From positions 3,658,001-3,722,000 of the forward strand of contig CM102283.1 in the NCBI GenBank assembly GCA_046563655.1: a stretch of DNA of 64,000 nt, written 5' to 3'. The position numbers and the translations under genes are program-made. Origin of the DNA: Yuukianura sp. NJ FZ-2021 (taxonomy: Eukaryota). Numbering within the stretch: the first letter of the stretch is position 1; each line of letters starts with the position of its first letter. The notes under the pieces were generated by a model that did not search any database, was not told the origin of the DNA, and saw nothing but the letters and a program-made list of their open reading frames with translations. Positions 203 through 47,000 of the stretch are shown one piece after another.

Positions 203-285
203 GCCTCTATAGCTCAGTGGTTAGAGCATCTGTCTTGTATCCTCAATTTAACAGAAGGTCGGTAGTTCGAACCTGCCTAGAGGCT
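203..285 (+). tRNA. tRNA-Thr(UGU) with a 10-nt intron (240-249)
   Basis: Acceptor stem GCCTCTA/TAGAGGC; D-arm GCTC-AGTGGTTA-GAGC; anticodon stem TCTGT/ACAGA with loop CT-TGT-A[TCCTCAATTT]A; T-arm GGTAG-TTCGAAC-CTGCC; T-run terminator just downstream. Confidence 0.9.
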
Positions 286-813
286 TAATTTTTTTTAAAA
301 TTAATTAATGATCAATTAAGTTTTGATTTTGAATTATTTCAACACGTAGAGTCTTCTATTTTGGAGTAAAACACGATTTTCGTATTTTTAATTCGCAAAA
401 TACTTTAAAAATCTTTAACAACAACGCTTTGCAAAGATTTTTGAATTAAAAATTGATTAATTTTAAAAATTTATTTTGGAAAATGAACACTTATGTTTCA
501 TGGTTTGTGTGAACCGTGCTTAAAGTTGGGGTGAAAACATGTTTTCTGCTTCCTTGAGCCTCTTTGGATTTGCTTTAAAAATTTTATTGAAAAAAATGAA
601 TAATGTCGACTCTTATGGCCGAAGGCTGATTTTGGGCAGAAATCAGCGTCAGTTCCTATTATGATAAGGTGAACTGATTGCGAATTTGATAAGACTGGGA
701 AGCGCTGAATGCAAACAGCGACACTACGTTAGGCAACCTCAGTTTTATTGAGCATAGCTCAATTGTTTGCCAAAACTGATCAGTGCAATTCCCCAAAATT
801 TTAGTTGAATCAA

Positions 814-2230
814 ATGGCAGAGCACTTTACGTGTGCCATTTGTCTCGATTTTGCTTCTGGTAATTACAAGCAGTAATTACTTTAATTTCGTTTGATTTGA
901 ATTAATTTTACTTAATTTTTCCCGGGTAGAATATCCTAACAAAGACTATTTTGTGAGCACCCGCGGAGGACACATCTTCCACTTTCTCTGTATCAAACAA
1001 CACATCAACAACGGAGATGACACGTCAGTATAACAGTCAAAGTCCAAACTTCAAAGAATCAAATTTCAAAATCAGTTTTCAAAATTTGGAATTTCGTTTA
1101 CTCAAAATTTTGGTAGATGCCCATTGTGCCGAGAACCAGTAGTGCTAAACGACCTGACGCGTCTTTACGGTATCCGAATCAAGAAAACAGCAATGTCGGT
1201 TCGATTGCAATCCGACGGCAGCGACGGAACGTTACCGTAAGTTTCCAAAAATTCGAAACGAAAAGACCACAAACTTTTTCAAATGGCAAAAATTTCAGGT
1301 CAATCAAAATTGTGATACTTGGGAACAGCAGTGTTGGAAAATCCAGCATTCTCAGAAGATTCGCCGTAAGTTTTTCTAAATAAGCAGTACAAACCACAAT
1401 ATTCTAAACTTTAAAATTTAAAACAGCTCTGTTTCTAAAATTTTTAGAACAAAGAATTCAACGTAGAACTGAACCCCACATGTGGCTGTGATGTCGTAAG
1501 TACTTTTGCTACTCCATATCCTTAAAAACCGAAATTTCAGTTGTTGTTTTTTTTTCAAAATCAAAATTGAATTTTGAAAACTAGGTTTTCCGGAACATTG
1601 CAATCGGTGGAAAAGTTTTTCGACTGAACCTGGTACGTTATCTCAATTTTCCTCAATCTAAATCAAACATTGACCCAGATCGTTGACGTTTGTGTAAAAA
1701 TGTTGACCTTTGACCTTTGAAGTGGGACACAGCAGGTCAAGAAAACTTTAGATCCGTCGTGTCCACTACAGTAAGAGGTGCCATGGGTGTCATCTTGGTC
1801 TATGACGTCACAGACATACTTTCACTTAACGACGTAGAAGGCTGGCTAAAATTTGCACAATCAAATGGACCAGAAGATTCTGTCAAAATTTTAGTCGGAA
1901 ACAAAACGGATTTGACTGAACATCGCAAAGTGACTCCACTCATAGGCCAGGTCACACCTTAAACAAAATTAATCACAATTAATTAAAACTTTTAAAAATT
2001 TGAACTTTTTTTGATTTTTTTTATCTTAGGCTGTCGCTGAAAAATTAGGACTCCAATTTTTCGAAACGTCGGCCAAGACAGGAGAAAACATTGAAGCCGT
2101 TTTCCGCACTTTGGTGGCCAAAATTTTGGAAAAACCGATTTTATCTCAAACTGAAACAAATTTAGTACAACTGGAAATAGACGGTGGGGGAAGGAGTGGG
2201 AAGGGGTGGTGTCAATGCTCGATTCTTTGA
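814..2230 (+). CDS. RING-H2-like finger fused to a Rab8/Rab10-like small GTPase (8 exons, about 283 aa)
   Basis: Exons 814-859, 930-1023, 1117-1236, 1299-1365, 1448-1495, 1585-1632, 1723-1950 and 2030-2230 join in frame through GT-AG introns. N-terminus CAICLD...TRGGHIFHFLCIKQH...CPLCR, then G1 GNSSVGKS, G2 PT, G3 WDTAGQE, RGAMG, G4 NKTD, G5 ETSAK and C-terminal CQCSIL. Confidence 0.85.
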
Positions 2231-2345
2231 AAAAATCTATTTCTATTTATAAGTAATCGATTACTTCAATCAAAAATTACTTTTGATTTATTAGACTGCG
2301 TTATTTTTACTTTTTCCCACCAAAAACACAAATTTTTACTAAAAG

Positions 2346-5300
2346 TCAATCGTTGTCCCCAGGCGATGGGGCGTAAATGAACATATGAGCATGTGCCAAA
2401 ATGATTTTGATTTCTGGAATAAACGACTCCCAATCTCTTTGCACTGAAGATGGATCATTCTCCAGAGAATCCAGACAGTCACCAAGACTAAACACGTTCT
2501 GGACCTGCGCACAAAAGTAATTCATGTTAATTCATGATAATTCATGGTAATTCAAGGTAATTCATGGTAATTTCTGCTGATGTATTATATTGGGGAGTTC
2601 ATCTGAAATTCAAAAATGGAAGAACTTGAATTTGAATTAACACGAATTTTCAAAATATTCTAAAAAAAATTGGTAAAATTTAAGCGGTCTGGGGCGAAGC
2701 CCCAGCAAGCATGCGAAGCATTCTCGTTTAAACTACATAATTCATGGAAATTGGCGATAATTAATAGTATTTCACAGGAAATTCATAGTAATTCATGGTA
2801 ATTACTTGTAGTTCGTAATTACAATGACTTTGAACTTACTTGTGGTCCATCACATGCCGAATCATGTACAATCCACTCTCCATTGGTTGTTCCACATTTG
2901 ACGAAAGCTATAGACTGATTGTCTCTTGTACAAATGATTGACTGCAATTCATAGACTAATTTTCTCTTTTCAGCGTCTGGAAGTTTTTTGTTGTGATTTC
3001 TGCGTGTCCAGTGCTGATGAAAGGCTTCAAAACACTGATTGCAAAAAGCGTTTGTGCTGGAATCGGAGGAGCTTGGATCAGAAACTACCAAATCTGCACA
3101 ATCTGCACACTCCATGCTGGAATTCCCACCGCACAAGGCACATGAACTAGAAGATTCTGGACTAGGAGCTAAAGTTTCAAAATAGTAAAAATGTCAATTT
3201 TTGAACTACTTTTTCAAAATTTTTCAAAATTTTGGTTTACCGTTGAGTGTCACTAGATTACTGAAAGAGATGGATGGATTAGGAATGAACAGTTTGGAAG
3301 GAGCAGCCGATCCATCAGTTCTGTCTGGCAGGACAATGACAAGAGCAGGAACTGGCAAATTTTGAAATTTTAAATTTTGAAGATTCAAATCTGCCGCCAA
3401 AAGATTTTCAACTGAAATGACATTTTCTGAAAAATTTGATGTGCTGGACATGATTCGGTGGAGGTAACTTTTAGTTCCGTTTGAGTATGAAATTATAGGA
3501 TTCGGTGCTTCAGTTTCATCCACCTTTTGTAACAAAGTTTCTAAAATTTGATCTGACTTTCCTGAAAACCAAAAATTTCCAAAATTTTCTAAACATTTCT
3601 TTTACAAAACAAAAATTTAGTTTTTAGTATCTTACCGGGTAGAATTGAGTGTTGAGCACAACTGAATACTTGAGCAACTGCTTGGATGTTGGATGCTGGG
3701 CAGTAGTACTTGCGTCTCAGTCGGTTAGCAACTTCTGTCCGCAGTATTTCTTTGTAAATCTGGACAGTGAGTGGATCAGCATCTTGGGTATGCAGCAGCA
3801 TTTTGTCAAAAGAGTCTGAGCAACTGAAAACGGCAAAAAGTAGTGCGTCCATGTGACTCGAATTGCTCCTTCCCTGGATTCCACGTTTGTAACCTAGCAA
3901 CAACAGCAAAAAATAATGAAAATTATGAAATTTTGACAAGTGAAATTGAAATTTTTAAAGTAGGATTGAAATTTTTGAGTTTTTGTGCTTTTTACCAATG
4001 AGGCGTTTTAGTTTTTCCGTGGAAATGGATGGGGCAATGACTCCTTTTTGCGGGAACCATTCGTGGGAAGCTCTGGCAGTTGGATTGTGCGTTCTTGTGC
4101 GGTTGCTAAGACGACGACTAGCTAAAGCATGGATTTGTGAAAGGGGGGAGGGGGCGGTGGGTGGACTTTCCTCCCCCTCCGGAACTATCCGAGTATATGT
4201 CACGAGGGTATCAAACGGAACAATGTCAGTCACTTCCGGTGGACAGTCGCTTGGCAACGGATCGGTGTAGTGTCTACTTCCAGTTTTCAAAGGAGTGTCC
4301 TACATCAAAGTCAAAGTTAATAGGTCAATACATGGCAGCAAGATTTCAAAATTTCCCGGCGGGATTGTCATATTTCCCGATATTTCCCGGCAGGATTTTC
4401 ATATTTCCCGGGAAAAACTTACAAATTGAATTCCCGCCATTTGACTATTACTACCAGCGGAGCTTCCAAGCCACTTGACTCTTCCTGTATAGTAGGAACT
4501 GGAGTCACGCTGATACAAAACGGCATCTCCAACTTCAAAATTTCCTGAAAAAAGATTTTCAAAAATGTTCAATTTTGGAACTTTTTTGAAATAGTTCCAG
4601 TTGTGTAAAAGCATACTTGGAACACTTTGTTGTCGCTGCCAGTGATTAGCCAAGTCCTGATTGGTGAAATCAAAAGTTGTGGTAGACATGAGTCCATTTT
4701 CAGCGGGAATTTCAGTTTTTGAACTCCATTCGTGCTTTTTAACACAGCTTACACATAGGAACTTTCCGAAATTCGGTTTACATTCAAACAGCTTGTGGCC
4801 TTCAAACGTCCCAGAAGAGTTTCCAACAGCACTTTTCTAAAAAAGAATCAAAAAGTGAAATTTTGAATATTTTTTTTAAACTTTGTTTTCCAAAAACTTA
4901 CAAATTCGATTCCAACTGTTAATCCGCTTTGACAACTGAGGTGACCCAGCCACTTGACTTGACCTGTGTAGTTTGTACCTTCCCTGGACCAGATTATTTT
5001 GTCTCCCACTTTCAGTCCACTCGGCCCTGAATCTTTAATTCAAAATTCAAAATTTTAATTTTTTCAAAATTTCAATTTTTCGTTCAAATTTTCTTAAGAA
5101 ATCAGAATTCCTACCGACTGCAAATGGATAAATGACATCAAACTGCTTGAGTTTCTGTGGATCAATTGCAGTTTCTTCGACATTTCTCTCGCGTGGTCTC
5201 TCCCGAATGGACACTTTGCGCATGAGCTTTGACAAGGTTCGACTGAGCAAAGACTGTCTCTGCGCATAGTCAGACTTCAGAATTAGTTCAGACACGCGCA

Positions 5301-5949
5301 GAATCAAGGAATGCCCGGCAGGAGTGTAGAATAAGCGACGATTTCTCCAAACTATCGGAAATGGAGACCCCACTTTCTCATCCTGAAAAAAAAACATACA
5401 CAAAGTTTTTCAAAATTTTGGTTAAATTTCAGATTTTGAATTTTAGAATTACGGTAAAGACGCCTGCGCAGAGAATTCTTTCGATACTTCCGAGCCATTT
5501 GACGGTGCCCTTGAAAGTTGTGCTGTCACTGCCAAACCAAATCACTCGACTGCCCACTTTAAGGTCTCCGATACATTCTGAAATTTCAGAAATTTTGAAA
5601 TTCCAGAAAATTTAAAAAAAAAAAGTTTCGAAATTTCACTTACCAACATTTACGAATGACCTGTCTTTGTCCAGAGGTTGCTTGACGAGTTCCTTGATAT
5701 TTGGTACGTGTTTTTCCAGGAATTCTGGAAAAGTCTCTGATCCAAGACGCTCATACGGAACTTCCATTTCCAGCATCGATAGAGTAAAAGCTAAAAACCA
5801 AAAAAATAGAAATTTCAATTTCACATTTTCAGAAATTTTGAAAAAAGTGTTGTCTTACTTTCTTCAACTGGCAGACCACATTTGAGTTTAAATTCGACAT
5901 ATTTTGCCCAGTCACTCACTCCAAAAGTGACGCGTTTAGCCATGTCCAT
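2346..5949 (-). CDS. CYLD-like: CYLD-like protein (CAP-Gly repeats plus USP domain with B-box-like insert), predicted catalytically inactive
   Basis: CAP-Gly-like segments (LKVGSRVIW...GTVKWLG; LKVGDKIIW...GQVKWLG; FEVGDAVLY...GRVKWLG); Cys-box GIQGRSNSSHMD; Zn insert CALCGG..ECADC..FCNQC..H; His-box ELQSIICTRDNQSIAFVKCG; C-terminus AHMFIY. Multi-exon; start codon inferred. Confidence 0.8.
2517..2810. repeat. Degenerate 10-bp GTAATTCATG-type repeats in CYLD-like gene introns
   Basis: taattcatgt/taattcatga/taattcatgg/taattcaagg tandem at 2518-2570, with a looser cluster at 2738-2805. Confidence 0.6.
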
Positions 5950-6844: not shown

Positions 6845-7182
6845 CCGTAAAACTTCGAATAAATGCCAGGCCCTTAAAAGTTTCTGAGATAAGTCGTGTC
6901 TGAAGGGGCGAGAAATACATGGAGTACAAGGTTCAAGGGCTCAGATGGATTGAGTGGCAAAGATTGACAGTGAAGAAAAAAAAAGAACCGAGTGGGACTC
7001 GAACCCGCATCTCTTCCATCCAGGAAGAGCTCTAACCACTGAGCTATCAGGTTCCATTCTAAAAAGGGTGGAATCCGAACAGGCACTTTCCATACACCTT
7101 CATGTTTGGTGGCGGCAGCAATAGTGTTGCCACACGCACAAACTAAAATAGTAGCCCCGGCTTCTATTTAGAAGTTTTACGG
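6845..7182. mobile_element. Tc1/mariner-pogo-type MITE flanked by TA
   Basis: TA|CCGTAAAACTTCGAATAAATGCCAGG ... CCCCGGCTTCTATTTAGAAGTTTTACGG|TA: imperfect TIRs of about 30 bp with TA on both sides. Confidence 0.7.
6985..7054 (-). pseudogene. tRNA-like / tRNA-derived Pol III cassette inside the MITE
   Basis: Minus strand reads GAACCTGA TAGCTCAGTGGTTAGAGC TCTTCCTGGATGGAAGA GAT GCGGGTTCGAGTCCCAC TCGGTTC TTTTTTTTT: A box, B box and T9 terminator, but a bulged acceptor stem and an atypical anticodon arm. Confidence 0.7.
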
Positions 7183-16730: not shown

Positions 16731-19700
16731 CAGCGTTGCTGGATATCAACTTTTCCGACATTTCATCCACGACTGGATATCCAGTGGAAGATATGGGCGA
16801 AATGGATGAATACCAGAGCCATCAGCTAAAATTTTAGAGTTCAAAGTGATTTAATACCAGAGCCATCAGCTAAAATTTTAGAGTTCAAAATGATTTAATA
16901 CCAGAGCCATCAGCTAAAATTTTAGAGTTCGATGTGATTTAATACCAGAGCCATCAGCTAAAATTTTAGAGTTCGATGTGATTTAATACCAGAGCCATCA
17001 GCTAAAATTTTAGAGTTCGATGTGATTTAATACCAGAGCCATCAGCTAAAATTTTAGAGTTCAAAGTGATTTAATACCAGAGCCATCAGCTAAAATTTTA
17101 GAGTTCAAAGTGATTTAATACCAGAGCCATCAGCTAAAATTTTAGAGTTCGATGTGATTTAATACCAGAGCCATCAGCTAAAATTTTAGAGTTCAAAGTG
17201 ATTTAATACCAGAGCCATCAGCTAAAATTTTAGAGTTCGATGTGATTTAATACCAGAGCCATCAGCTAAAATTTTAGAGTTCGATGTGATTTAATACCAG
17301 AGCCATCAGCTAAAATTTTAGAGTTCGATGTGATTTAATACCAGAGCCATCAGCTAAAATTTTAGAGTTCAAAGTGATTTAATACCAGAGCCATCAGCTA
17401 AAATTTTAGAGTTCAAAGTGATTTAATACCAGAGCCATCAGCTAAAATTTTAGAGTTCGATGTGATTTAATACCAGAGCCATCAGCTAAAATTTTAGAGT
17501 TCAAAGTGATTTAATACCAGAGCCATCAGCTAAAATTTTAGAGTTCAATGTGATTTAATACCAGAGCCATCAGCTAAAATTTTGGAGTTCAATGTGATTT
17601 AATACCAGAGCCATCAGCTAAAATTTTAGAGTTCAATGTGATTTAATACCAGAGCCATCAGCTAAAATTTTAGAGTTCAATGTGATTTAATACCAGAGCC
17701 ATCAGCTAAAATTTTAGAGTTCAATGTGATTTAATACCAGAGCCATCAGCTAAAATTTTAGAGTTCAATGTGATTTAATACCAGAGCCATCAGCTAAAAT
17801 TTTAGAGTTCAATGTGATTTAATACCAGAGCCATCAGCTAAAATTTTAGAGTTCAATGTGATTTAATACCAGAGCCATCAGCTAAAATTTTAGAGTTCAA
17901 TGTGATTTAATACCAGAGCCATCAGCTAAAATTTTAGAGTTCAATGTGATTTAATACCAGAGCCATCAGCTAAAATTTTAGAGTTCAAAGTGATTTAATA
18001 CCAGAGCCATCAGCTAAAATTTTAGAGTTCGATGTGATTTAATACCAGAGCCATCAGCTAAAATTTTAGAGTTCAAAGTGATTTAATACCAGAGCCATCA
18101 GCTAAAATTTTAGAGTTCAAAGTGATTTAATACCAGAGCCATCAGCTAAAATTTTAGAGTTCAAAATGATTTAATACCAGAGCCATCAGCTAAAATTTTA
18201 GAGTTCAATGTGATTTAATACCAGAGCCATCAGCTAAAATTTTAGAGTTCGATGTGATTTAATACCAGAGCCATCAGCTAAAATTTTAGAGTTCAAAGTG
18301 ATTTAATACCAGAGCCATCAGCTAAAATTTTAGAGTTCGATGTGATTTAATACCAGAGCCATCAGCTAAAATTTTAGAGTTCAAAGTGATTTAATACCAG
18401 AGCCATCAGCTAAAATTTTAGAGTTCGATGTGATTTAATACCAGAGACATCATTTAAAATTTTAGAGTTCAAAGTGATTTAATACCAGAGCCATCAGCTA
18501 AAATTTTAGAGTTCAAAGTGATTTAATACCAGAGCCATCAGCTAAAATTTTAGAGTTCGATGTGATTTAATACCAGAGCCATCAGCTAAAATTTTAGAGT
18601 TCAATGTGATTTAATACCAGAGCCGTCAGCTAAAATTTTAGAGTTCAAAGTGATTTAATACCAGAGCCATCAGCTAAAATTTTAGAGTTCGATGTGATTT
18701 AATACCAGAGCCATCAGCTAAAATTTTAGAGTTCGATGTGATTTAATACAAGAGCCATCAGCTAAAATTTTAGAGTTCGATGTGATTTAATACCAGAGCC
18801 ATCAGCTAAAATTTTAGAGTTCAAAGTGATTTAATACCAGAGCCATCAGCTAAAATTTTAGAGTTCAAAGTGATTTAATACCAGAGCCATCAGCTAAAAT
18901 TTTAGAGTTCGATGTGATTTAATACCAGAGCCATCAGCTAAAATTTTAGAGTTCAAAGTGATTTAATACCAGAGCCATCAGCTAAAATTTTAGAGTTCGA
19001 TGTGATTTAATACCAGAGCCATCAGCTAAAATTTTAGAGTTCGATGTGATTTAATACCAGAGCCATCAGCTAAAATTTTAGAGTTCAAAGTGATTTAATA
19101 CCAGAGCCATCAGCTAAAATTTTAGAGTTCAATGTGATTTAATACCAGAGCCATCAGCTAAAATTTTAGAGTTCAATGTGATTTAATACCAGAGCCATCA
19201 GCTAAAATTTTAGAGTTCAATGTGATTTAATACCAGAGCCATCAGCTAAAATTTTAGAGTTCAATGTGATTTAATACCAGAGCCATCAGCTAAAATTTTA
19301 GAGTTCAATGTGATTTAATACCAGAGCCATCAGCTAAAATTTTAGAGTTCAATGTGATTTAATACCAGAGCCATCAGCTAAAATTTTAGAGTTCAATGTG
19401 ATTTAATACCAGAGCCATCAGCTAAAATTTTAGAGTTCAATGTGATTTAATACCAGAGCCATCAGCTAAAATTTTAGAGTTCAAAGTGATTTAATACCAG
19501 AGCCATCAGCTAAAATTTTAGAGTTCGATGTGATTTAATACCAGAGCCATCAGCTAAAATTTTAGAGTTCAAAGTGATTTAATACCAGAGCCATCAGCTA
19601 AAATTTTAGAGTTCAAAGTGATTTAATACCAGAGCCATCAGCTAAAATTTTAGAGTTCAAAATGATTTAATACCAGAGCCATCAGCTAAAATTTTAGAGT

Positions 19701-22700
19701 TCGATGTGATTTAATACCAGAGCCATCAGCTAAAATTTTAGAGTTCAAAGTGATTTAATACCAGAGCCATCAGCTAAAATTTTAGAGTTCGATGTGATTT
19801 AATACCAGAGACATCATTTAAAATTTTAGAGTTCAAAGTGATTTAATACCAGAGCCATCAGCTAAAATTTTAGAGTTCAAAGTGATTTAATACCAGAGCC
19901 ATCAGCTAAAATTTTAGAGTTCGATGTGATTTAATACCAGAGCCATCAGCTAAAATTTTAGAGTTCAATGTGATTTAATACCAGAGCCATCAGCTAAAAT
20001 TTTAGAGTTCAAAGTGATTTAATACCAGAGCCATCAGCTAAAATTTTAGAGTTCGATGTGATTTAATACCAGAGCCATCAGCTAAAATTTTAGAGTTCGA
20101 TGTGATTTAATACAAGAGCCATCAGCTAAAATTTTAGAGTTCGATGTGATTTAATACCAGAGCCATCAGCTAAAATTTTAGAGTTCAAAGTGATTTAATA
20201 CCAGAGCCATCAGCTAAAATTTTAGAGTTCAAAGTGATTTAATACCAGAGCCATCAGCTAAAATTTTAGAGTTCGATGTGATTTAATACCAGAGCCATCA
20301 GCTAAAATTTTAGAGTTCAAAGTGATTTAATACCAGAGCCATCAGCTAAAATTTTAGAGTTCGATGTGATTTAATACCAGAGCCATCAGCTAAAATTTTA
20401 GAGTTCGATGTGATTTAATACCAGAGCCATCAGCTAAAATTTTGGAGTTCAAAGTGATTTAATACCAGAGCCATCAGCTAAAATTTTAGAGTTCAAAATG
20501 ATTTAATACCAGAGCCATCAGCTAAAATTTTAGAGTTCAAAGTGATTTAATACCAGAGCCATCAGCTAAAATTTTAGAGTTCAAAGTGATTTAATACCAG
20601 AGCCATCAGCTAAAATTTTAGAGTTCAATGTGATTTAATACCAGAGCCATCAGCTAAAATTTTAGAGTTCAATGTGATTTAATACCAGAGCCATCAGCTA
20701 AAATTTTAGAGTTCAATGTGATTTAATACCAGAGCCATCAGCTAAAATTTTAGAGTTCAATGTGATTTAATACCAGAGCCATCAGCTAAAATTTTAGAGT
20801 TCAAAGTGATTTAATACCAGAGCCATCAGCTAAAATTTTAGAGTTCAAAGTGATTTAATACCAGAGCCATCAGCTAAAATTTTAGAGTTCAATGTGATTT
20901 AATACCAGAGCCATCAGCTAAAATTTTAGAGTTCAATGTGATTTAATACCAGAGCCATCAGCTAAAATTTTAGAGTTCAATGTGATTTAATACCAGAGCC
21001 ATCAGCTAAAATTTTAGAGTTCGATGTGATTTAATACCAGAGCCATCAGCTAAAATTTTAGAGTTCAAAGTGATTTAATACCAGAGCCATCAGCTAAAAT
21101 TTTAGAGTTCGATGTGATTTAATACCAGAGACATCATTTAAAATTTTAGAGTTCAAAGTGATTTAATACCAGAGCCATCAGCTAAAATTTTAGAGTTCAA
21201 AGTGATTTAATACCAGAGCCATCAGCTAAAATTTTAGAGTTCAAAGTGATTTAATACCAGAGCCATCAGCTAAAATTTTAGAGTTCAAAATGATTTAATA
21301 CCAGAGCCATCAGCTAAAATTTTAGAGTTCAATGTGATTTAATACCAGAGCCATCAGCTAAAATTTTAGAGTTCAAAGTGATTTAATACCAGAGCCATCA
21401 GCTAAAATTTTAGAGTTCGATGTGATTTAATACCAGAGCCATCAGCTAAAATTTTAGAGTTCAAAGTGATTTAATACCAGAGCCATCAGCTAAAATTTTA
21501 GAGTTCAAAATGATTTAATACCAGAGCCATCAGCTAAAATTTTAGAGTTCAAAGTGATTTAATACCAGAGCCATCAGCTAAAATTTTAGAGTTCAAAGTG
21601 ATTTAATACCAGAGCCATCAGCTAAAATTTTAGAGTTCAATGTGATTTAATACCAGAGCCATCAGCTAAAATTTTAGAGTTCGATGTGATTTAATACCAG
21701 AGCCATCAGCTAAAATTTTAGAGTTCAAAGTGATTTAATACCAGAGCCATCAGCTAAAATTTTAGAGTTCGATGTGATTTAATACCAGAGACATCATTTA
21801 AAATTTTAGAGTTCAAAGTGATTTAATACCAGAGCCATCAGCTAAAATTTTAGAGTTCAAAGTGATTTAATACCAGAGCCATCAGCTAAAATTTTAGAGT
21901 TCAAAGTGATTTAATACCAGAGCCATCAGCTAAAATTTTAGAGTTCGATGTGATTTAATACCAGAGCCATCAGCTAAAATTTTAGAGTTCAAAGTGATTT
22001 AATACCAGAGCCATCAGCTAAAATTTTAGAGTTCGATGTGATTTAATACCAGAGCCATCAGCTAAAATTTTAGAGTTCAAAGTGATTTAATACCAGAGCC
22101 ATCAGCTAAAATTTTAGAGTTCGATGTGATTTAATACCAGAGACATCATTTAAAATTTTAGAGTTCAAAGTGATTTAATACCAGAGCCATCAGCTAAAAT
22201 TTTAGAGTTCAAAGTGATTTAATACCAGAGCCATCAGCTAAAATTTTAGAGTTCGATGTGATTTAATACCAGAGCCATCAGCTAAAATTTTAGAGTTCAA
22301 TGTGATTTAATACCAGAGCCATCAGCTAAAATTTTAGAGTTCAAAGTGATTTAATACCAGAGCCATCAGCTAAAATTTTAGAGTTCGATGTGATTTAATA
22401 CCAGAGCCATCAGCTAAAATTTTAGAGTTCAAAGTGATTTAATACCAGAGCCATCAGCTAAAATTTTAGAGTTCAAAGTGATTTAATACCAGAGCCATCA
22501 GCTAAAATTTTAGAGTTCGATGTGATTTAATACCAGAGCCATCAGCTAAAATTTTAGAGTTCGATGTGATTTAATACCAGAGCCATCAGCTAAAATTTTA
22601 GAGTTCGATGTGATTTAATACCAGAGCCATCAGCTAAAATTTTAGAGTTCAAAGTGATTTAATACCAGAGCCATCAGCTAAAATTTTAGAGTTCGATGTG

Positions 22701-25700
22701 ATTTAATACCAGAGCCATCAGCTAAAATTTTAGAGTTCAAAGTGATTTAATACCAGAGCCATCAGCTAAAATTTTAGAGTTCAAAGTGATTTAATACCAG
22801 AGCCATCAGCTAAAATTTTAGAGTTCAAAGTGATTTAATACCAGAGCCATCAGCTAAAATTTTAGAGTTCGATGTGATTTAATACCAGAGCCATCAGCTA
22901 AAATTTTAGAGTTCAAAGTGATTTAATACCAGAGCCATCAGCTAAAATTTTAGAGTTCGATGTGATTTAATACCAGAGACATCATTTAAAATTTTAGAGT
23001 TCGATGTGATTTAATACCAGAGACATCATTTAAAATTTTAGAGTTCAAAGTGATTTAATACCAGAGCCATCAGCTAAAATTTTAGAGTTCAAAGTGATTT
23101 AATACCAGAGCCATCAGCTAAAATTTTAGAGTTCAAAGTGATTTAATACCAGAGCCATCAGCTAAAATTTTAGAGTTCGATGTGATTTAATACCAGAGCC
23201 ATCAGCTAAAATTTTAGAGTTCAAAGTGATTTAATACCAGAGCCATCAGCTAAAATTTTAGAGTTCGATGTGATTTAATACCAGAGCCATCAGCTAAAAT
23301 TTTAGAGTTCAAAGTGATTTAATACCAGAGCCATCAGCTAAAATTTTAGAGTTCGATGTGATTTAATACCAGAGCCATCAGCTAAAATTTTAGAGTTCAA
23401 AGTGATTTAATACCAGAGCCATCAGCTAAAATTTTAGAGTTCAAAGTGATTTAATACCAGAGCCATCAGCTAAAATTTTAGAGTTCGATGTGATTTAATA
23501 CCAGAGCCATCAGCTAAAATTTTAGAGTTCAAAGTGATTTAATACCAGAGCCATCAGCTAAAATTTTAGAGTTCGATGTGATTTAATACCAGAGCCATCA
23601 GCTAAAATTTTAGAGTTCGATGTGATTTAATACAAGAGCCATCAGCTAAAATTTTAGAGTTCGATGTGATTTAATACCAGAGCCATCAGCTAAAATTTTA
23701 GAGTTCAAAGTGATTTAATACCAGAGCCATCAGCTAAAATTTTAGAGTTCAATGTGATATAATACCAGAGCCATCAGCTAAAATTTTAGAGTTCAATGTG
23801 ATTTAATACCAGAGCCATCAGCTAAAATTTTAGAGTTCAAAGTGATTTAATACCAGAGCCATCAGCTAAAATTTTAGAGTTCAATGTGATTTAATACCAG
23901 AGACATCATTTAAAATTTTAGAGTTCAAAGTGATTTAATACCAGAGCCATCAGCTAAAATTTTAGAGTTCGATGTGATTTAATACCAGAGCCATCAGCTA
24001 AAATTTTAGAGTTCAATGTGATTTAATACCAGAGCCATCAGCTAAAATTTTAGAGTTCAAAGTGATTTAATACCAGAGCCATCAGCTAAAATTTTAGAGT
24101 TCGATGTGATTTAATACCAGAGCCATCAGCTAAAATTTTAGAGTTCGATGTGATTTAATACCAGAGCCATCAGCTAAAATTTTAGAGTTCGATGTGATTT
24201 AATACCAGAGCCATCAGCTAAAATTTTAGAGTTCAAAGTGATTTAATACCAGAGCCATCAGCTAAAATTTTAGAGTTCGATGTGATTTAATACCAGAGCC
24301 ATCAGCTAAAATTTTAGAGTTCGATGTGATTTAATACCAGAGCCATCAGCTAAAATTTTAGAGTTCGATGTGATTTAATACCAGAGCCATCAGCTAAAAT
24401 TTTAGAGTTCGATGTGATTTAATACCAGAGCCATCAGCTAAAATTTTAGAGTTCGATGTGATTTAATACCAGAGCCATCAGCTAAAATTTTAGAGTTCAA
24501 AGTGATTTAATACCAGAGCCATCAGCTAAAATTTTAGAGTTCGATGTGATTTAATACCAGAGCCATCAGCTAAAATTTTAGAGTTCAAAGTGATTTAATA
24601 CCAGAGCCATCAGCTAAAATTTTAGAGTTCGATGTGATTTAATACCAGAGCCATCAGCTAAAATTTTAGAGTTCGATGTGATTTAATACCAGAGCCATCA
24701 GCTAAAATTTTAGAGTTCGATGTGATTTAATACCAGAGCCATCAGCTAAAATTTTAGAGTTCGATGTGATTTAATACCAGAGCCATCAGCTAAAATTTTA
24801 GAGTTCGATGTGATTTAATACCAGAGCCATCAGCTAAAATTTTAGAGTTCAATGTGATTTAATACCAGAGCCATCAGCTAAAATTTTAGATTTCAAAGTG
24901 ATTTAATACCAGAGCCATCAGCTAAAATTTTAGAGTTCAAAGTGATTTAATACCAGAGCCATCAGCTAAAATTTTAGAGTTCAATGTGATTTAATACCAG
25001 AGCCATCAGCTAAAATTTTAGAGTTCAATGTGATTTAATACCAGAGCCATCAGCTAAAATTTTAGAGTTCAATGTGATTTAATACCAGAGCCATCAGCTA
25101 AAATTTTAGAGTTCAAAGTGATTTAATACCAGAGCCATCAGCTAAAATTTTAGAGTTCAAAGTGATTTAATACCAGAGCCATCAGCTAAAATTTTAGAGT
25201 TCAATGTGATTTAATACCAGAGCCATCAGCTAAAATTTTAGAGTTCAATGTGATTTAATACCAGAGCCATCAGCTAAAATTTTAGAGTTCAAAGTGATTT
25301 AATACCAGAGCCATCAGCTAAAATTTTAGAGTTCAATGTGATATAATACCAGAGCCATCAGCTAAAATTTTAGAGTTCAATGTGATTTAATACCAGAGCC
25401 ATCAGCTAAAATTTTAGAGTTCAAAGTGATTTAATACCAGAGCCATCAGCTAAAATTTTAGAGTTCAATGTGATTTAATACCAGAGCCATCAGCTAAAAT
25501 TTTAGAGTTCAAAGTGATTTAATACCAGAGCCATCAGCTAAAATTTTAGAGTTCAATGTGATTTAATACCAGAGCCATCAGCTAAAATTTTAGAGTTCAA
25601 TGTGATTTAATACCAGAGCCATCAGCTAAAATTTTAGAGTTCGATGTGATTTAATACCAGAGCCATCAGCTAAAATTTTAGAGTTCAATGTGATTTAATA

Positions 25701-27644
25701 CCAGAGCCATCAGCTAAAATTTTAGAGTTCAATGTGATTTAATACCAGAGCCATCAGCTAAAATTTTAGAGTTCAAAGTGATTTAATACCAGAGCCATCA
25801 GCTAAAATTTTAGAGTTCAATGTGATTTAATACCAGAGCCATCAGCTAAAATTTTAGAGTTCAATGTGATTTAATACCAGAGCCATCAGCTAAAATTTTA
25901 GAGTTCGATGTGATTTAATACCAGAGCCATCAGCTAAAATTTTAGAGTTCAATGTGATTTAATACCAGAGCCATCAGCTAAAATTTTAGAGTTCAAAGTG
26001 ATTTAATACCAGAGCCATCAGCTAAAATTTTAGAGTTCAAAGTGATTTAATACCAGAGCCATCAGCTAAAATTTTAGAGTTCAATGTGATTTAATACCAG
26101 AGCCATCAGCTAAAATTTTAGAGTTCAATGTGATTTAATACCAGAGCCATCAGCTAAAATTTTAGAGTTCAAAGTGATTTAATACCAGAGCCATCAGCTA
26201 AAATTTTAGAGTTCAAAGTGATTTAATACCAGAGCCATCAGCTAAAATTTTAGAGTTCAAAGTGATTTAATACCAGAGCCATCAGCTAAAATTTTAGAGT
26301 TCAAAGTGATTTAATACCAGAGCCATCAGCTAAAATTTTAGAGTTCAAAGTGATTTAATACCAGAGCCATCAGCTAAAATTTTAGAGTTCAATGTGATTT
26401 AATACCAGAGCCATCAGCTAAAATTTTAGAGTTCAATGTGATTTAATACCAGAGCCATCAGCTAAAATTTTAGAGTTCAAAGTGATTTAATACCAGAGCC
26501 ATCAGCTAAAATTTTAGAGTTCAATGTGATATAATACCAGAGCCATCAGCTAAAATTTTAGAGTTCAATGTGATTTAATACCAGAGCCATCAGCTAAAAT
26601 TTTAGAGTTCAATGTGATTTAATACCAGAGCCATCAGCTAAAATTTTAGAGTTCAATGTGATTTAATACCAGAGCCATCAGCTAAAATTTTAGAGTTCAA
26701 TGTGATATAATACCAGAGCCATCAGCTAAAATTTTAGAGTTCAATGTGATTTAATACCAGAGCCATCAGCTAAAATTTTAGAGTTCAATGTGATTTAATA
26801 CCAGAGCCATCAGCTAAAATTTTAGAGTTCAAAGTGATTTAATACCAGAGCCATCAGCTAAAATTTTAGAGTTCAATGTGATTTAATACCAGAGCCATCA
26901 GCTAAAATTTTAGAGTTCAATGTGATTTAATACCAGAGCCATCAGCTAAAATTTTAGAGTTCAAAGTGATTTAATACCAGAGCCATCAGCTAAAATTTTA
27001 GAGTTCAATGTGATTTAATACCAGAGCCATCAGCTAAAAGCTAAAAGAGAGTTTTTTGGTTTCTTCCTGATAATTACTACTGGTTTTAATTGGTTAAATA
27101 AACTGGTTTAATTTGAACATATTCAATACCACTGACTTGATTAGAGCCATTCTGATAGCTTTTTCAAGTTAGTAAAGTCAAACGTTAGGTTCCGACAAAA
27201 ACGAAAAGTGACCTTTGACCTAGGACCTAGGCATTTTACAGTTGTTTTCTAAAACATAGTTTCAACACACACAAACATAGTTATTATAGAATTTCTGTTC
27301 TATTATAATTATATATTCTATAATTAGTTACACAACACAACTATGTTTAACATAGTTTCAGTTAATTGAAGTGATGCTCAGGTTGAGTGGTGCGCTGAGT
27401 GCGTGAGGAGCTGCTACAGTAACCACCTTTTAGTCAATTCGGTTAGCATAAGGTTTAACGACAGGTATGGCGTCCTAACCTAACCTAACCTAACATGAAA
27501 GAAACACTTTTTTTAAGTTTTCGCTGAATTCTTAATTTCTTGCCTCCACTAAAAGTTTCATCCATTTCAGGTGCATTTCTTCCAGTGGCTATACAGTGGA
27601 AATGGCAATTAATCCACTGGATGTTTAAACGTCCAGCAACACTG
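16731..27644. mobile_element. Second hAT-type element of the same family, inverted, enclosing the 44-bp satellite
   Basis: 16731-16811 matches the reverse complement of the right end of 16199-16591; about 27520-27644 matches the reverse complement of its left end; TIR CAGCGTTGCTGGA/TCCAGCAACACTG; flanks GTTGTATG and GTTGTGTG (7/8 identical TSD). Confidence 0.8.
16809..27039. repeat. 44-bp satellite array, about 232 copies, highly homogeneous
   Basis: Unit AATACCAGAGCCATCAGCTAAAATTTTAGAGTTC[AAAG/AATG/GATG/AAAA]TGATTT; the line pattern recurs every 660 nt (15 x 44). Confidence 0.99.
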
Positions 27645-28825: not shown

Positions 28826-30635
28826 ATGAACGCTGTTCAGTCAGTTCGTCACTATGTCGACAAAATGATCCAAGATGCTGGACCAGGCATGAAGATCCTC
28901 CTCATGGACAAGGAAACTACTTCAGTCATATCCAACGTCTACTCTCAGACAGAAATCATGACAAAAGAAGTCTATCTCTGCGACAGACTGGACAACATGA
29001 AGAACCGAGAACCTCTGCATCACTTGAAATGTTTAGTATTCCTACGTCCAACGGACGAAAATGTGACCTACTTGTGTATGGAACTGAAGAATCCGATGTA
29101 CGGATCCTACTACCTCCACTGGACCAATATCATTTCGAAATCAGAGGTGAAAAGATTAGCGGAAGCAGATGAACAAGAACTGGTGCGGGAGATATCCGAG
29201 TGTTTTGCCGATTTCATTCCAATTAACTCTCATACATTCATAACAAACACTCCGCATGGACACATTTTTACTGGAGCGGGAGACATTCTGAAGGAGCCGG
29301 TGGTCGTTGCACTAACTCAGGCTGTCATTAGTTTCTTGCTGGCTTCGAAGAGACTTCCGTACATAAGATACACTGATTGGTCCAGACCGTGTGAAAAGTT
29401 GGCCGAAAGATTAGCAAGTACGATGGACAAGGAGAGACATGACAAGGGGCTTTTTAGTTTTACACAACCCAGAATCCAGGATGGGAGTGGCCAAGCCCTG
29501 TCACGGCCGGTCATACTGATCCTGGACAGACGAGACGACTGTGTCACGCCGATACTGAACCAGTGGACGTATCAAGCGATGGTACACGAACTACTTACTA
29601 TTAAGAATCAACGTGTCAGTCTGGCCGATGCTCCAGGTAAGAATTCCGTCAACTTTAAAAAAAAAAGAATTAAAAAAAAATTTTTTTTTTGATTTTTTGT
29701 TAGATATTCCAAAGGACTTTCGAGAAGTTGTTCTGTCGGCATCACACGACAGTTTTTTTGCTGAAAATTTATACGCTGACTTTGGCATGGTTGGGCAGAA
29801 CCTGCGTCAACTCGTAGAAGAATTCCAGAACAAGGCCAAATCTCAACAAAAAGTAGAGTCAATCGACGACATGAAAACGTTTATCGAAAACTACCCACAT
29901 TTCAAGCAAATGTCAGGCACCGTATCGAAACATGTTGTTGTCGTAGGAGAGTTGGCCCGTCTCAACGAAAAGTACTCCCTTCTGGAAGTATCCGAACTGG
30001 AACAAGAAATTGCTTGTCACTCTAATCACTCCAGTAGTCTCCAGTCTCTTCAAAAGTTACTCTCGAACGTCAAAGTGCGTGACCGTGACTGCCTGCGACT
30101 CGCACTTCTCTACGCTCTTAAGTTTGAAACGCACTCAAACAACGACATAACTGGACTCATCAGGAAGCTAAAGACGAAGGGACTTCCAGATGAAGATGTC
30201 AACTTGGTCAAAGCTATTTTAAGATTCGGAGGAGTGAAGAAACGCAAATCAGATTTGTTCGGAAGTCATCCGGTAGCTGTGACGAAGCGGTTTATGAAGG
30301 GACTCAAAGGAGTTGAGAATATTTACACTCAGCATACACCGTGGCTCAAAACTGTTCTGGATGACATTCGGAGAGGGAAGTTGAGGGAGGACCAGTACCC
30401 TTATTACACGAAATCACAAGATTATGCTCCGCCAATGAACGAATTGAATTTTAGAGCTTCGGAGGTCATCGTTTTCGTTCTGGGAGGAATCACTTATGCA
30501 GAGTCACTTGTGGTGCACAACATCAATCGACTGGATGGTCGCACATCAGTAGTGCTTGGAGGAACGCAAATGCACAACATGAATTCGTTTCTGGAAGAAA
30601 TCAGGGCGTCCATGCCGAAACATCAAGAACACTGA
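28826..30635 (+). CDS. VPS45: Vacuolar protein sorting 45 (Sec1/Munc18 family)
   Basis: GPGMKILLMDKETT...EVYL; HLKCLVFLRPT; LDRRDDCVTPILNQWTYQAMVHELL; KGLKGVENIYTQH. Exons 28826-29636 and 29704-30635. Confidence 0.97.
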
Positions 30636-44006: not shown

Positions 44007-47000
44007 CTAGAATCCTGGATCCCACTCACACTTCTGCGTCACTTGGATCATGCGATAGCAAATGAGCGTATCTCCTGGTGCTGGCTCCACCCCTCCATCG
44101 CTGAAAGCAATTCCACACTCTACTCCGTTCTTGATCGAGTCTACTTCGTTCTTCAAATGTCGAATGGAGCTCACTCTCCCTGCAAACAACAAAAGAATAT
44201 TAATCAACTCAACTTCTGACAGGCTTCAAGATATCAAATGCCCATTAAAAATTTCCAACCACATTTCAAATATTTGCTTTTTCCAAAAAACGGATAATGG
44301 CAGTGGTGACCGTGACATGGACAAAAAAGTGTCCAAAACTAAATCCGCCTTGGCATGATTAGCCTCTCGTATCATATTTCAGGATTACGGTATCGCCTTC
44401 CAGAATATTAATTAGTATTCACAATTTCAAATTCTCAGTTTTCTAAAAAAAAACTTTCAAAAGCTCAATGTACTAACTTTTGAATGTAACTGAAACTTTT
44501 GAAAAAGTTCAAAAAATTCCCGCCTCCACAGCCGCAAAGTAGTCAGAAATGAATTCAAATTTTACCGGTATGGATGACTTCGTTCTCTGGACCGCGGATG
44601 AGTTTGAACAAAGAATCTTTGCGCAGGACTCCTTTGGTGCACCGTGACCCCGCCACTGCCACTTTCTTCTTGCCATCCGTCACTTGAAATATTTGGAGCA
44701 CATTTCCAGTTCCTAGCTCCTCCTCCACATCTTTCTTGGGCAGTATGGCTTCAATGTCTTTCTTTAATTCCTCCACCAGACGATAAATCACTTTGCTCTG
44801 TCTGCACTTCAGCCCCACCTGACTACATGTTCTCTGGAGTACTTCTGGAATGGAGACATTGAAGGCATATATGTGAGCTCCGAATAGTTCAGCCAGCTTA
44901 ACATCATTGTCAGTCAAATCTCCTATGCCATAGTGGACCACGTCCAGTCGACACTGCGTGTCACAGTCATAAGAGTCCAAAAGATCCAGAAAAGACTCTA
45001 CAGATCCATCCACGTCTCCTTTCACTAAAATGTAAAGTTTGGGAGTCGGATCCGAATCTTCAATGATTTCTTTCGACCGTGGACCGCGGCGACGACGACG
45101 ACGTTTCAGAAGAAGTCGCTCGGCTAACTGGGCCTTGTAATCCTACAACCACAAAACAAACTTAATAATTTACATAATAAAAATAATAAAAAAATGTAAT
45201 GTAAATAACCTCCTGGCACAAGCAAACAAAGTCACTAATGAATTCCGACCACGCGCGAAGAATTTCCACCAATTCCGCACCGCCAGCGCGAAAGAATTTC
45301 TCAACATTTCGTCACAATTTTTATTCTAAATGACAAATCTTACTTAAAAATAAAACATTTTAGTTTTTTTTTGTATTTTGAAAATAAAATGTCGGAATTT
45401 TATAATTCGTCTTTGGATTGTTCTGGAGAAGTCTTGACTTCCAGCTCCTTCACTTTTTGTTGCAGCGATTTCCAGTACTTTTCAATTTTCTTTGAATGCT
45501 CCGCATAATCTTCTCCCAGCGCTTCATAGTTTTCGCTGATTTTGGCCTGGAAGAATTCGCTGATATCTTCCAGCGTCCGAATCATCTTGGGCAACCAAGT
45601 GGCTGGAGTGACTCCATCGTTCTTCTTGAGCACCAAGCGATCAGCCAGCTCTCGCACAACTTCATCTTTGCTCAATTTCTCAACTTCTTCATCCGTCGCT
45701 GGAATTCCAGCCTCGTTTCTCAGTTGTTTTAGACTCGCTGGAAGATCCTGGATAACTCCGATAGACATTTTTAGTACTTCCACTTCTATCAGCGTCGATA
45801 GACTATGATGTCCATAAGGGTCAAAGGTCGCTCCATATTTCTTGTCCAGCAGGGTGTCCAGTTCAGCCTCTTTTTGCTTCTCTTCAAGTTCCTTCATTTG
45901 CGCCAAAAGTGCGTCTATTTTTGCAACGACTTTTTCACGAATTGAATCTCCCTCGGCTTGTAAATTGGTAAACTTGATTTCCAAATCAGCGATTCCAGCC
46001 ACCACAGATTCTTGCATGAGTTTGAGCTGAGACAAATCGCTGGAATCGCCGAATGATGTTATACTGGCTGAAAACTGTTTGAGTTGAGTTTTGAGAGGTT
46101 TGATGTGATTTTCTAAAAATGGCTTCCATGGATCTTGGTTACTCAAATCTCCAGTTTCTTGGTCCAGATCTTTAAATTTGTTGTAAAGTGCAAGAATTGA
46201 GTCAAAGTGGGATTCAACTGGATCAATATCCACCGTATTCTCGTCTTCAGTTGACACAAATTGAAAAACTAACAGTGTTAAAAATATTTTGAACAACATT
46301 TTCGAAATTTAATACAAAATTAAACTTAGGAAGTGAAAAATTTGACTGAAGTTAAAGTTTTCAAGTTGACTTTTGAAATGAATTTCGTCGACTTTGTAGG
46401 GTAAAAGAAAACTTCACAGCCGATAGAATTTAAAAACCTGTTTTTCCTTATTGCCGATGTTGCGAAAAAAGTTAGCCTCGAGCAAAAAGTTGAAATGCTA
46501 CGTGTGCTTAGCTTTGAAGTGTTAAAAAGTAGCAATTCAGCAGAATTTTGATTTTCATGAGAAAAAATGCTGGCCAATAAAAATTTTCGTAATGAAAGAA
46601 ACTGCTTACCTTGAGATGAGCTTCTGATTTTGCGTTGATTGCTACTAAATCCCCTTCTTGCTTCTCATTGATTCGAAGTGATTCTCGGTATTCCACCACT
46701 TGCTTCGCTTTGTGCTAAAAATTTAGTTAGTAACAGTAACATTCTAAATTCAAAATTTTTCAAAAACTTGGACCTTACTTCAGAGTCAACTTCAAAAATT
46801 CGGTCTCCTGCTGACGGAATTTCTCTCCAACCGATGATTTGAACCGGCATGGACGGGGAAGCTTCTTGCATCGTATCACCAAACTCGTCAAAAATTCCAC
46901 GTACCTAAAATATTTTATGGAAAAAACAGTATAAACATAAAAATTTCGTTAAAAGTGGGGAAAAATTGTTAGTTTTAGTGTTACTTTTGCCCATGCTGTC

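Follow-up and report, generated by a model that had tools for sequence, protein, structure and literature searches.

Positions 814–2230 on the forward strand of the window, by which we mean the whole 64-kb stretch of DNA analysed, hold a single intact protein-coding gene of an animal with small introns. Joining of the pieces by their coordinates, with a three-frame reading of positions 780–2300, gave eight exons in frame and an 852-nt coding sequence for a product of 283 residues (Table 1). The coding region spans 1417 nt including the seven introns, which are all of the GT...AG type and measure, in order, 70, 93, 62, 82, 89, 90 and 79 nt. An in-frame TAG lies shortly upstream of the start codon. 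GC content is 0.446 in the exons versus 0.267 in the introns of this gene, and each of the seven introns, if retained, introduces an in-frame stop after 2–18 codons. The original prediction had proposed eight exons joined in frame through canonical GT-AG introns and a 283-residue protein; this model was reproduced exactly, and all of its coordinates proved correct, including the 1236/1299 junction and the position of the internal methionine codon.

Read from its N-terminus, the product consists of a RING-H2-type finger (residues 7–51), a conserved linker of about 35 residues, a Rab-type GTPase (approximately residues 88–252) and a variable tail. That the gene and the RING-Rab fusion are both real we regard as close to certain. 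The 64-kb window contains a single copy of the gene, no second one being found there by tblastn with ten family proteins. The DNA of the window is AT-rich (GC 0.32–0.43) and of eukaryotic character, with short introns.

Table 1. Coordinates of the gene encoding the RING-Rab protein, in window positions
Feature	Position	Strand	Content
In-frame stop (TAG)	802..804	+	shortly upstream of the start codon
Exon 1	814..859	+	start codon ATG (814–816); RING ligands C7 (832–834) and C10 (841–843)
Exon 2	930..1023	+	RING core; Gly28 (965–967) at the ligand-3 position; H30 (971–973), H33 (980–982), C36 (989–991)
Exon 3	1117..1236	+	RING ligands C48 (1118–1120) and C51 (1127–1129), with Arg52 right behind the last Cys; L-x-x-L-Y-G motif (1154–1171), kept across the family; linker with internal Met73 (1193–1195)
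Exon 4	1299..1365	+	start of the GTPase domain; P-loop GNSSVGKS (1321–1344); Pfam Ras and Roc matches
Exon 5	1448..1495	+	switch I; Thr120 (1478–1480), invariant in the family
Exon 6	1585..1632	+	two beta strands leading from switch I to switch II
Exon 7	1723..1950	+	WDTAGQE (1723–1743) with catalytic Gln147; NKTD (1900–1911); Pfam Ras 72.2 bits
Exon 8	2030..2230	+	ETSAK (SAK 2069–2077); variable tail; C-Q-C-S-I-L (2210–2227); stop codon (2228–2230); Pfam Ras 26.2 bits

The RING of the window is split over three exons; Pfam was scored exon by exon, and the full-length score was taken on the ortholog P0008 described below. In the scan by exon, Ras matches were returned for exons 4, 7 and 8, and exon 2 alone gave a weak RING-family match (zf-C3HC4, 16.1 bits, under the cut-off of 21). 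The spread of the RING across three short exons makes the gene easy to miss or to split during annotation.

An ortholog and a family of RING-Rab proteins

A search with exon 7 led to P0008, an uninterrupted open reading frame of 277 residues on a public JGI contig of 1000 bp. Its protein is identical to the spliced product in 186 of 278 alignment columns (67%), with a single gap of one residue, and is colinear with it over all seven junctions. Every exon junction of the model thus falls within continuous, conserved P0008 protein sequence, and because the P0008 frame is continuous and colinear across all seven of them, RING and Rab belong to one protein. The first 13 residues, encoded by exon 1, are the same in both. 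As the reading frame takes up 834 nt of the 1000-nt contig, the contig contains no introns; judged from its size and the absence of introns, it is most simply a spliced transcript. In Pfam, P0008 scores 167.1 bits with Ras and 45.8 bits with Arf, and its RING part reaches 30.2 bits with zf-RING_2 (cut-off 27.3) and 26.6 bits with zf-C3HC4 (cut-off 21). Taken by part, the window protein and P0008 are identical at 41/56 positions of the RING (73%), 22/31 of the linker, 113/165 of the GTPase and 11/31 of the tail. The RING is thus the most conserved of the four parts, no less so than the GTPase, and is under constraint.

With P0008 as the query, a HMMER search of 1.84 billion representatives returned 61,027 hits, nearly all of them ordinary Rabs. 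Among the best 150 of the 61,027, seven were matched in a single stretch from RING to GTPase (P0135, P0143, P0147, P0160, P0165, P0194 and P0229) and three were relatives cut at the N-terminus (P0155, P0162 and P0168). Together with the colinear frame of P0008, these further proteins carrying both RING and Rab bear out the RING-Rab fusion that had been predicted. Two of these proteins, P0135 and P0143, belong to Allacma fusca, and P0160 comes from Orchesella dallaii; the two species are springtails (Collembola), and the UniRef label of all three reads only ‘RING-type domain-containing protein’. The remaining RING+Rab relatives lie on contigs of 1.0–1.4 kb. In the family alignment the members share the RING, the GTPase and a motif L-x-[RK]-L-[YF]-G situated 8–13 residues past the last RING cysteine, whose two leucines correspond to L59 of P0008, without variation in the alignment, and L62, with almost none. 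The window protein has the full set of family features, namely RING, L-x-x-L-Y-G linker and GTPase in one open reading frame, with the GTPase inside the family clade.

That clade was obtained in a maximum-likelihood tree of the GTPase domains only (64 rows, 175 columns; P0050 was left out, since its P-loop was unmatched by the trimming pattern). Eleven RING-Rab rows and P0232 form one clade with support of 98/95, apart from the rows named Rab1/ypt1 and Rab8, and the pairing of the window protein with P0008 has support of 100/100. The union of the GTPase domains in one clade points to a single old fusion followed by duplication. P0232, which starts with Met and has no RING, lies within the clade and shows that loss or skipping of the RING can occur. 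P0229, which represents a cluster of 15 members, has a different RING of C3HC4 type and no linker motif. It falls outside the clade, grouping with two plain Rabs (97/81), and was not counted as a family member; its type is probably a separate fusion.

Two more clusters of RING+Ras proteins were found in the ESM Atlas, one with 56 members and no recorded taxa, the other with 63 members, mostly Nematoda. The RING+Ras architecture is thus recurrent and already present in databases. Searches of other kinds added no further member. None of the 80 loci kept out of 509 relatives on metagenome contigs, with P0008 as the query, has a RING, the matches beginning at residue 76 or 88; the contig of P0008 itself was not among them. 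A word-index protein search with exon 3 alone gave 10 candidates, none of which scored, and one with residues 1–90 of P0008 gave only P0008 among 6 candidates, the index being insensitive to a short, fast-evolving part of this kind. No description of the family was found in full-text searches of the literature; architectures of this kind may yet be listed in the supplementary domain tables of Rab surveys. In the text of two such surveys (PMC3192815 and PMC3504004), the word ‘RING’ occurs 0 times. The RING-Rab proteins are a real and conserved family, present in databases without a name and undescribed in the literature searched. The architecture is confined to a small number of lineages and its named members are from springtails, which agrees with the lineage-specific origin proposed at the outset. 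The accompanying remark that no standard RING-Rab family was known holds for the literature searched, but not for the databases, in which three springtail proteins are annotated and the two ESM Atlas clusters are deposited. Wide prior annotation of the architecture had been named at the outset as grounds for refuting the proposal, and these entries partly supply such grounds.

The GTPase and RING halves

All five nucleotide-binding motifs, G1 to G5, are intact in the spliced product: GNSSVGKS at residues 95–102, T120, WDTAGQE at 142–148 (with Gln147), NKTD at 201–204 and SAK at 231–233. The Rab switch is therefore apparently competent, as far as can be told from these motifs. All of the 60 best sequence matches in the PDB are Rab, Ypt or Sec4 proteins, with Rab1B in first place (140.5 bits), followed by Rab18, Rab12, Sec4 and Rab11. 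When the AF2 model was submitted to Foldseek, the matches listed were all Rab or Ypt, at TM scores of 0.87–0.94 normalised to the target; Rab1 came first, with about 40% identity and a TM score of 0.93 on the same normalisation. Both lists put the domain nearer to the Rabs than to Ras, Rho, Arf or Ran. Among named representatives, a Rab1A-like protein and a ypt1 come closest. By its sequence, the GTPase is a divergent, lineage-specific Rab whose nearest canonical relative is Rab1/Ypt1. It forms its own clade and reaches at best about 40–43% identity to a canonical Rab, which places it outside the canonical subfamilies.

An affinity to Rab8/10, suggested originally by the RGAMG stretch and the CaaX-like end, was rejected. 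Rab10 scores 121 bits in the PDB ranking, against the 140.5 bits of Rab1B, and Rab8 is absent among the 60 best matches; the closest named representatives are likewise of the Rab1 type, and in the tree the family forms a clade of its own.

Stretches corresponding to RabF1–F5, the definitions of which are reportedly those of Pereira-Leal and Seabra, were located by eye as CGCDV, RLNLW, NFRSVV, TVRGA and LVYDVT. On this reading RabF5 is nearly canonical and RabF3 well kept, and RabF1, RabF2 and RabF4 are partly altered. Among the changes are C-G-C-D-V for I-G-V-D-F and T-V-R-G-A for Y-Y-R-G-A of the Rab family.

In the C-terminus of the window protein, C-Q-C-S-I-L, three residues come after a C-x-C pair; a CaaX box with Leu at its end is another possible reading. 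A C-terminal cysteine motif is shared by the ortholog, which ends in the classic Rab form C-S-C, and by P0143 and P0165, which end in C-x-C. P0135, P0147, P0155 and P0162 have no such motif, and some of the paralog tails are long; as several paralogs lack the motif, not every family member is anchored to a membrane. For the window protein itself, the description as a complete Rab with a cysteine end holds, with all five G motifs and a putative prenylation site in place.

The RING follows the pattern C7-x2-C10 ... G28-G-H30-x2-H33-x2-C36 ... C48-x2-C51. Seven of the eight zinc ligands are present (C7, C10, H30, H33, C36, C48 and C51), one fewer than a strict eight-ligand definition of the RING requires. 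Ligand 3 is replaced by Gly28 (codon GGA) in the window, and the same glycine is found in P0008, whereas six paralogs have Cys-Gly-His at this place in the family alignment. Since the glycine is common to the window and P0008, the change is old and tolerated and is no sequencing slip. With Gly as ligand 3, the second zinc site of both proteins is left, as read from the alignment, with three protein ligands. Other members each miss a different ligand: in P0147 the eighth-ligand cysteine (C8) is changed to D, P0160 has C-x3-C, and in P0194 the second-ligand cysteine (C2) is changed to D. These differing losses suggest relaxed constraint on the canonical zinc sites.

An AF2 model of the ortholog P0008 shows a strand-strand-helix arrangement over residues 23–42 (strands 23–25 and 31–33, helix 34–42; block pLDDT 79–90). 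The fold expected of a RING is accordingly present in the model of P0008, which stands in here for the window protein. The window protein has Ile9 between ligands C1 and C2, Pro49 after C7 and Arg52 straight after C8, at positions which usually contact E2 or E2~Ub. The N-terminal domain had been called RING-H2-like; the RING part of this assignment stands on the Pfam scores and the RING-like fold model of the ortholog, and must be qualified by the presence of only seven of the eight ligands, with glycine at the third.

Comparison with other GTPases and RING proteins

TRIM23/ARD1 resembles the window protein in that its single polypeptide has a RING E3 module at the N-terminus and a small GTPase at the C-terminus and couples a GTP switch to ubiquitin ligation. 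However, the TRIM23 GTPase is of ARF type and has no C-terminal prenylation, whereas that of the window is Rab-like. B-boxes and a coiled coil stand between RING and GTPase in TRIM23, where the window protein has nothing but its short linker, and the Pfam scan of P0008 is free of B-box and coiled-coil families, so that its architecture is not that of TRIM23/ARD1. TRIM23 is widespread in Metazoa, whereas the RING-Rab family has so far been named only in springtails. TRIM23 and RING-Rab are separate, non-homologous fusions.

Rab40 is alike in being a Rab that directs local ubiquitination; one report describes localised ubiquitylation of EPLIN that depends on Rab40b-Cullin5 (PMC8129794). Rab40 is without a catalytic RING of its own and recruits Cullin5 and its RING subunit by a SOCS box behind the GTPase. 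In RING-Rab, by contrast, the RING stands ahead of the GTPase and there is no SOCS box: the SOCS-box family is not among the 16 Pfam hits of P0008, and the tail behind the GTPase has only about 30 residues. The large Rabs Rab44, Rab45/RASEF and Rab46 are described as having a functional N-terminal extension before a C-terminal Rab domain (PMC8303950); as described there, none of them has a RING, unlike the window protein. Rab1/Ypt1, although the nearest canonical Rab by sequence and fold, likewise has no RING extension, and the RING-Rab clade stands apart from the Rab1 group in the tree.

For the RING part of P0008, the sequence matches in the PDB are E3 RING or U-box domains. The best solved match is the RING of RNF4 (32.1 bits, E 7.8e-07, a single RING against P0008 residues 6–57), with which P0008 shares a V-S-T-x-x-G-H-x-F stretch, and RNF4 is also at or near the top for the paralogs P0165 and P0135. 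RNF4 differs in being of C3HC4 type with all eight ligands and in having SUMO-interaction motifs and no GTPase. A specific descent of the RING from RNF4 is not shown, because the other RING-H2 domains of EL5, RLIM and RNF13 reach similar scores when the paralogs are the queries.

By its domain content, the window protein belongs to neither the TRIM23 nor the Rab40 group and is a Rab outside the canonical subfamilies. RING-Rab, in which a ubiquitin-ligase module is fused to a small GTPase, takes its place alongside TRIM23 and Rab40.

Proposed function and its alternatives

In the mechanism that we propose, the C-terminal cysteines would be prenylated and the GTP-bound form would reside on a particular membrane, the GDP form being extractable as in other Rabs. 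The RING would then stay at the membrane only for as long as the switch is on, and would recruit there either an E2 charged with ubiquitin or a RING partner that is catalytically complete; membrane or cargo proteins close by would become marked with ubiquitin. In this way the Rab cycle would set the place and time of ubiquitin attachment. We give about even chances to the prediction that the protein is a membrane-bound ligase, or a subunit of one, that is gated by GTP.

In the AF2 model of P0008 the linker (residues 61–80) is predicted to be disordered, with a pLDDT of about 52, which provides no fixed contact between RING and GTPase in support of allosteric gating. The predicted disorder argues instead for tethering and against tight allostery. 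Prediction of a complex between the RING (residues 1–70) and the GTPase (residues 84–256) with GTP and Mg gave scores of 0.31, 0.34 and 0.10 where the mark was 0.34, values that speak neither for nor against docking of the two.

The fusion may also be real and the RING of the window/P0008 orthogroup nevertheless no ligase, but a dimerisation or protein-binding module, or an additional surface by which a lineage-specific Rab binds effectors. One variant has it pair with a paralog whose RING is complete, much as BARD1, MDMX and BMI1 act as inactive RING partners. The glycine at ligand 3, where six paralogs retain Cys-Gly-His, and the loss of a different ligand in each of the other members are consistent with such a role. 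Partners would be available, since there are several paralog lineages, at least two of them in one species, Allacma fusca, and the RING resembles that of RNF4, which is a dimeric RING. Dimeric RINGs carry a tail aromatic near the position of the L-Y-G motif; the conserved aromatic L-Y-G motif found here 12–13 residues past the last cysteine may be taken as a lead only. Against a non-ligase RING stand conservation between the orthologs that equals that of the GTPase, the retention of the presumed E2-contact residues Ile9, Pro49 and Arg52, and an AF2 model of P0008 that still yields the RING-like strand-strand-helix. On balance we consider this alternative, the main rival, less likely than not.

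Production of two proteins, or of the Rab only, from a downstream start such as Met73, with the RING exons forming a small gene or an untranslated leader, is very improbable. The existence of a clade member without a RING, P0232, speaks for it, as does P0168, which as called has its Met start just ahead of the last RING cysteine. Yet Met73, the internal start about which the original prediction itself had been concerned, is replaced by Val in P0008 and thus is not conserved as a start of the Rab; RING, linker and GTPase are continuous in P0008 and in six further full-length relatives; and the linker, in which this start would lie, is 71% conserved. Moreover, the exon phases are compatible only with the joined reading, and an open reading frame of the RING exons by themselves would have no stop codon at the end of exon 3 unless intron 3 were retained. 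To the idea that the gene is a decaying or non-functional duplicate, its open frame being a chance or recent survivor, we give hardly any credence. It could appeal to the lost zinc ligand, to the weakly conserved tail and to a C-terminus unlike the C-x-C end of the ortholog, but an 852-nt frame is kept intact across seven canonical introns, all motifs of the GTPase are retained, and 67% identity to an ortholog that shares Gly28 marks the change as old and tolerated.

The reading that we prefer remains that of an intact gene belonging to a RING-Rab family of single origin, the product of which is predicted to act as a GTP-gated membrane ligase or as the partner of one; taken as a whole, we hold this to be slightly more probable than its negation. 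A more specific form of it is improbable in our estimate: the RING-Rab proteins, with several paralogs in springtails, would be self-contained, membrane-anchored ligases gated by their own Rab cycle, and the orthogroup with glycine at ligand 3, whose RING is nevertheless strongly constrained, would supply the non-catalytic half of heterodimers with the complete-RING paralogs. If this were true, ubiquitin transfer would require two different Rab switches to come together on the same membrane, amounting to a coincidence detector of membrane identity.

Membranes and cargo are labelled mainly by two systems, the small GTPases and the ubiquitin ligases. Direct fusions of a GTPase with a ligase are rare, TRIM23 being the textbook case for the ARF type, and Rab40 reaches its ligase only via an adaptor box. 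A natural Rab that carries a RING of its own would offer a minimal, genetically compact case of ubiquitination switched by membrane identity, and could serve directly as a design by which ligase activity is tethered to a Rab compartment. Some members of the family have complete zinc sites and others do not, prenylation motifs are present in some tails and absent from others, and one member has no RING; this natural series of variants could reveal which of the parts are required.

Departures from the canonical pattern within the family

Five relatives of P0008, a 277-aa ortholog of the RING-Rab protein encoded in the window, depart from the canonical pattern (eight RING zinc ligands and a WDTAGQE motif with the catalytic Gln in the GTPase) in ways that differ from member to member. 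Within the RING, the last Cys is replaced by Asp in P0147, a C-x3-C spacing is found in P0160, and Cys2 has become Asp in P0194; in P0232 the RING is wholly absent. The departure in P0165 lies in the GTPase, where R-D-T-G-G-S-E stands in place of W-D-T-A-G-Q-E, and this protein therefore lacks the catalytic Gln.

Further RING-GTPase proteins

A second kind of RING-Rab protein is represented by P0229 and P0269–P0282, a 15-member cluster drawn from several sources. The protein, 272 aa long in P0229, carries a C3HC4 RING, a type unlike that of the springtail family; it has no L-Y-G linker (the L-x-x-L-Y-G motif that the springtail-type family keeps between RING and GTPase). Its Rab domain is more canonical, the protein ends in C-C-N, and in the GTPase-domain tree the GTPase of P0229 falls outside the springtail-type clade.

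RING and Ras families also occur together in two clusters of the ESM Atlas, at ranks 5 and 6: one of 56 members (~389 aa) with zf-RING_UBOX on 93%, and one of 63 members (~291 aa), mostly from Nematoda, with zf-C3HC4 on 48%.

Other features of the window

The coordinates of further features are collected in the table. The uninterrupted 299-aa ORF has a hydrophobic, signal-peptide-like stretch at its N-terminus and K-D-E-L immediately before the stop codon, and looks like an intronless gene for a predicted ER-resident, helix-rich protein; an exact-sequence look-up returned no exact counterpart in the protein collection. The GC minimum of the window is an 8-kb stretch (GC 0.319–0.325) in which the AT skew is steadily positive (0.074–0.091).

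Features in the window (window positions)
Position	Strand	Feature	Remarks
203-285	+	tRNA	Rfam
2340-5611	-	CYLD-like deubiquitinase gene	downstream neighbour of RING-Rab gene, convergent
2519-2575 and 2738-2812		tandem ~11-nt units	flank 2580-2740 on both sides
2822-3193	-	B-box-like exon	CYLD-like gene
3592-3954	-	USP start	CYLD-like gene; match to solved CYLD, E 4e-09 to 9e-11
3856-3858	-	Ser codon (AGT)	CYLD-like gene
4402-4836 and 4851-5039	-	CAP-Gly exons	CYLD-like gene
6983-7055	-	tRNA-Ser(GGA)
18001-26000		GC minimum
28826-30635	+	long exons, resembling a Sec1/Vps45-type protein	ORF translation, by eye only
45400-46299	-	ORF
49416-51204	+	long exons, resembling an SRP-receptor-alpha-type protein	ORF translation, by eye only

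Neighbourhood of the RING-Rab gene

The start codon of the RING-Rab gene lies ~530 nt downstream of an 83-nt tRNA (60.5 bits), which is absent from the ARAGORN listing and is probably an intron-bearing eukaryotic tRNA. Beyond the other end of the gene, tandem units resembling G-T-A-A-T-T-C-A-T-G seem to fall within an intron of the CYLD-like gene.

The catalytic Cys of CYLD, which sits in the motif G-I-Q-G-x-x-N-S-C, has a Ser at its position in the CYLD-like gene. Because of this substitution, the neighbour of the RING-Rab gene may, judging from its sequence, be a natural pseudo-deubiquitinase.
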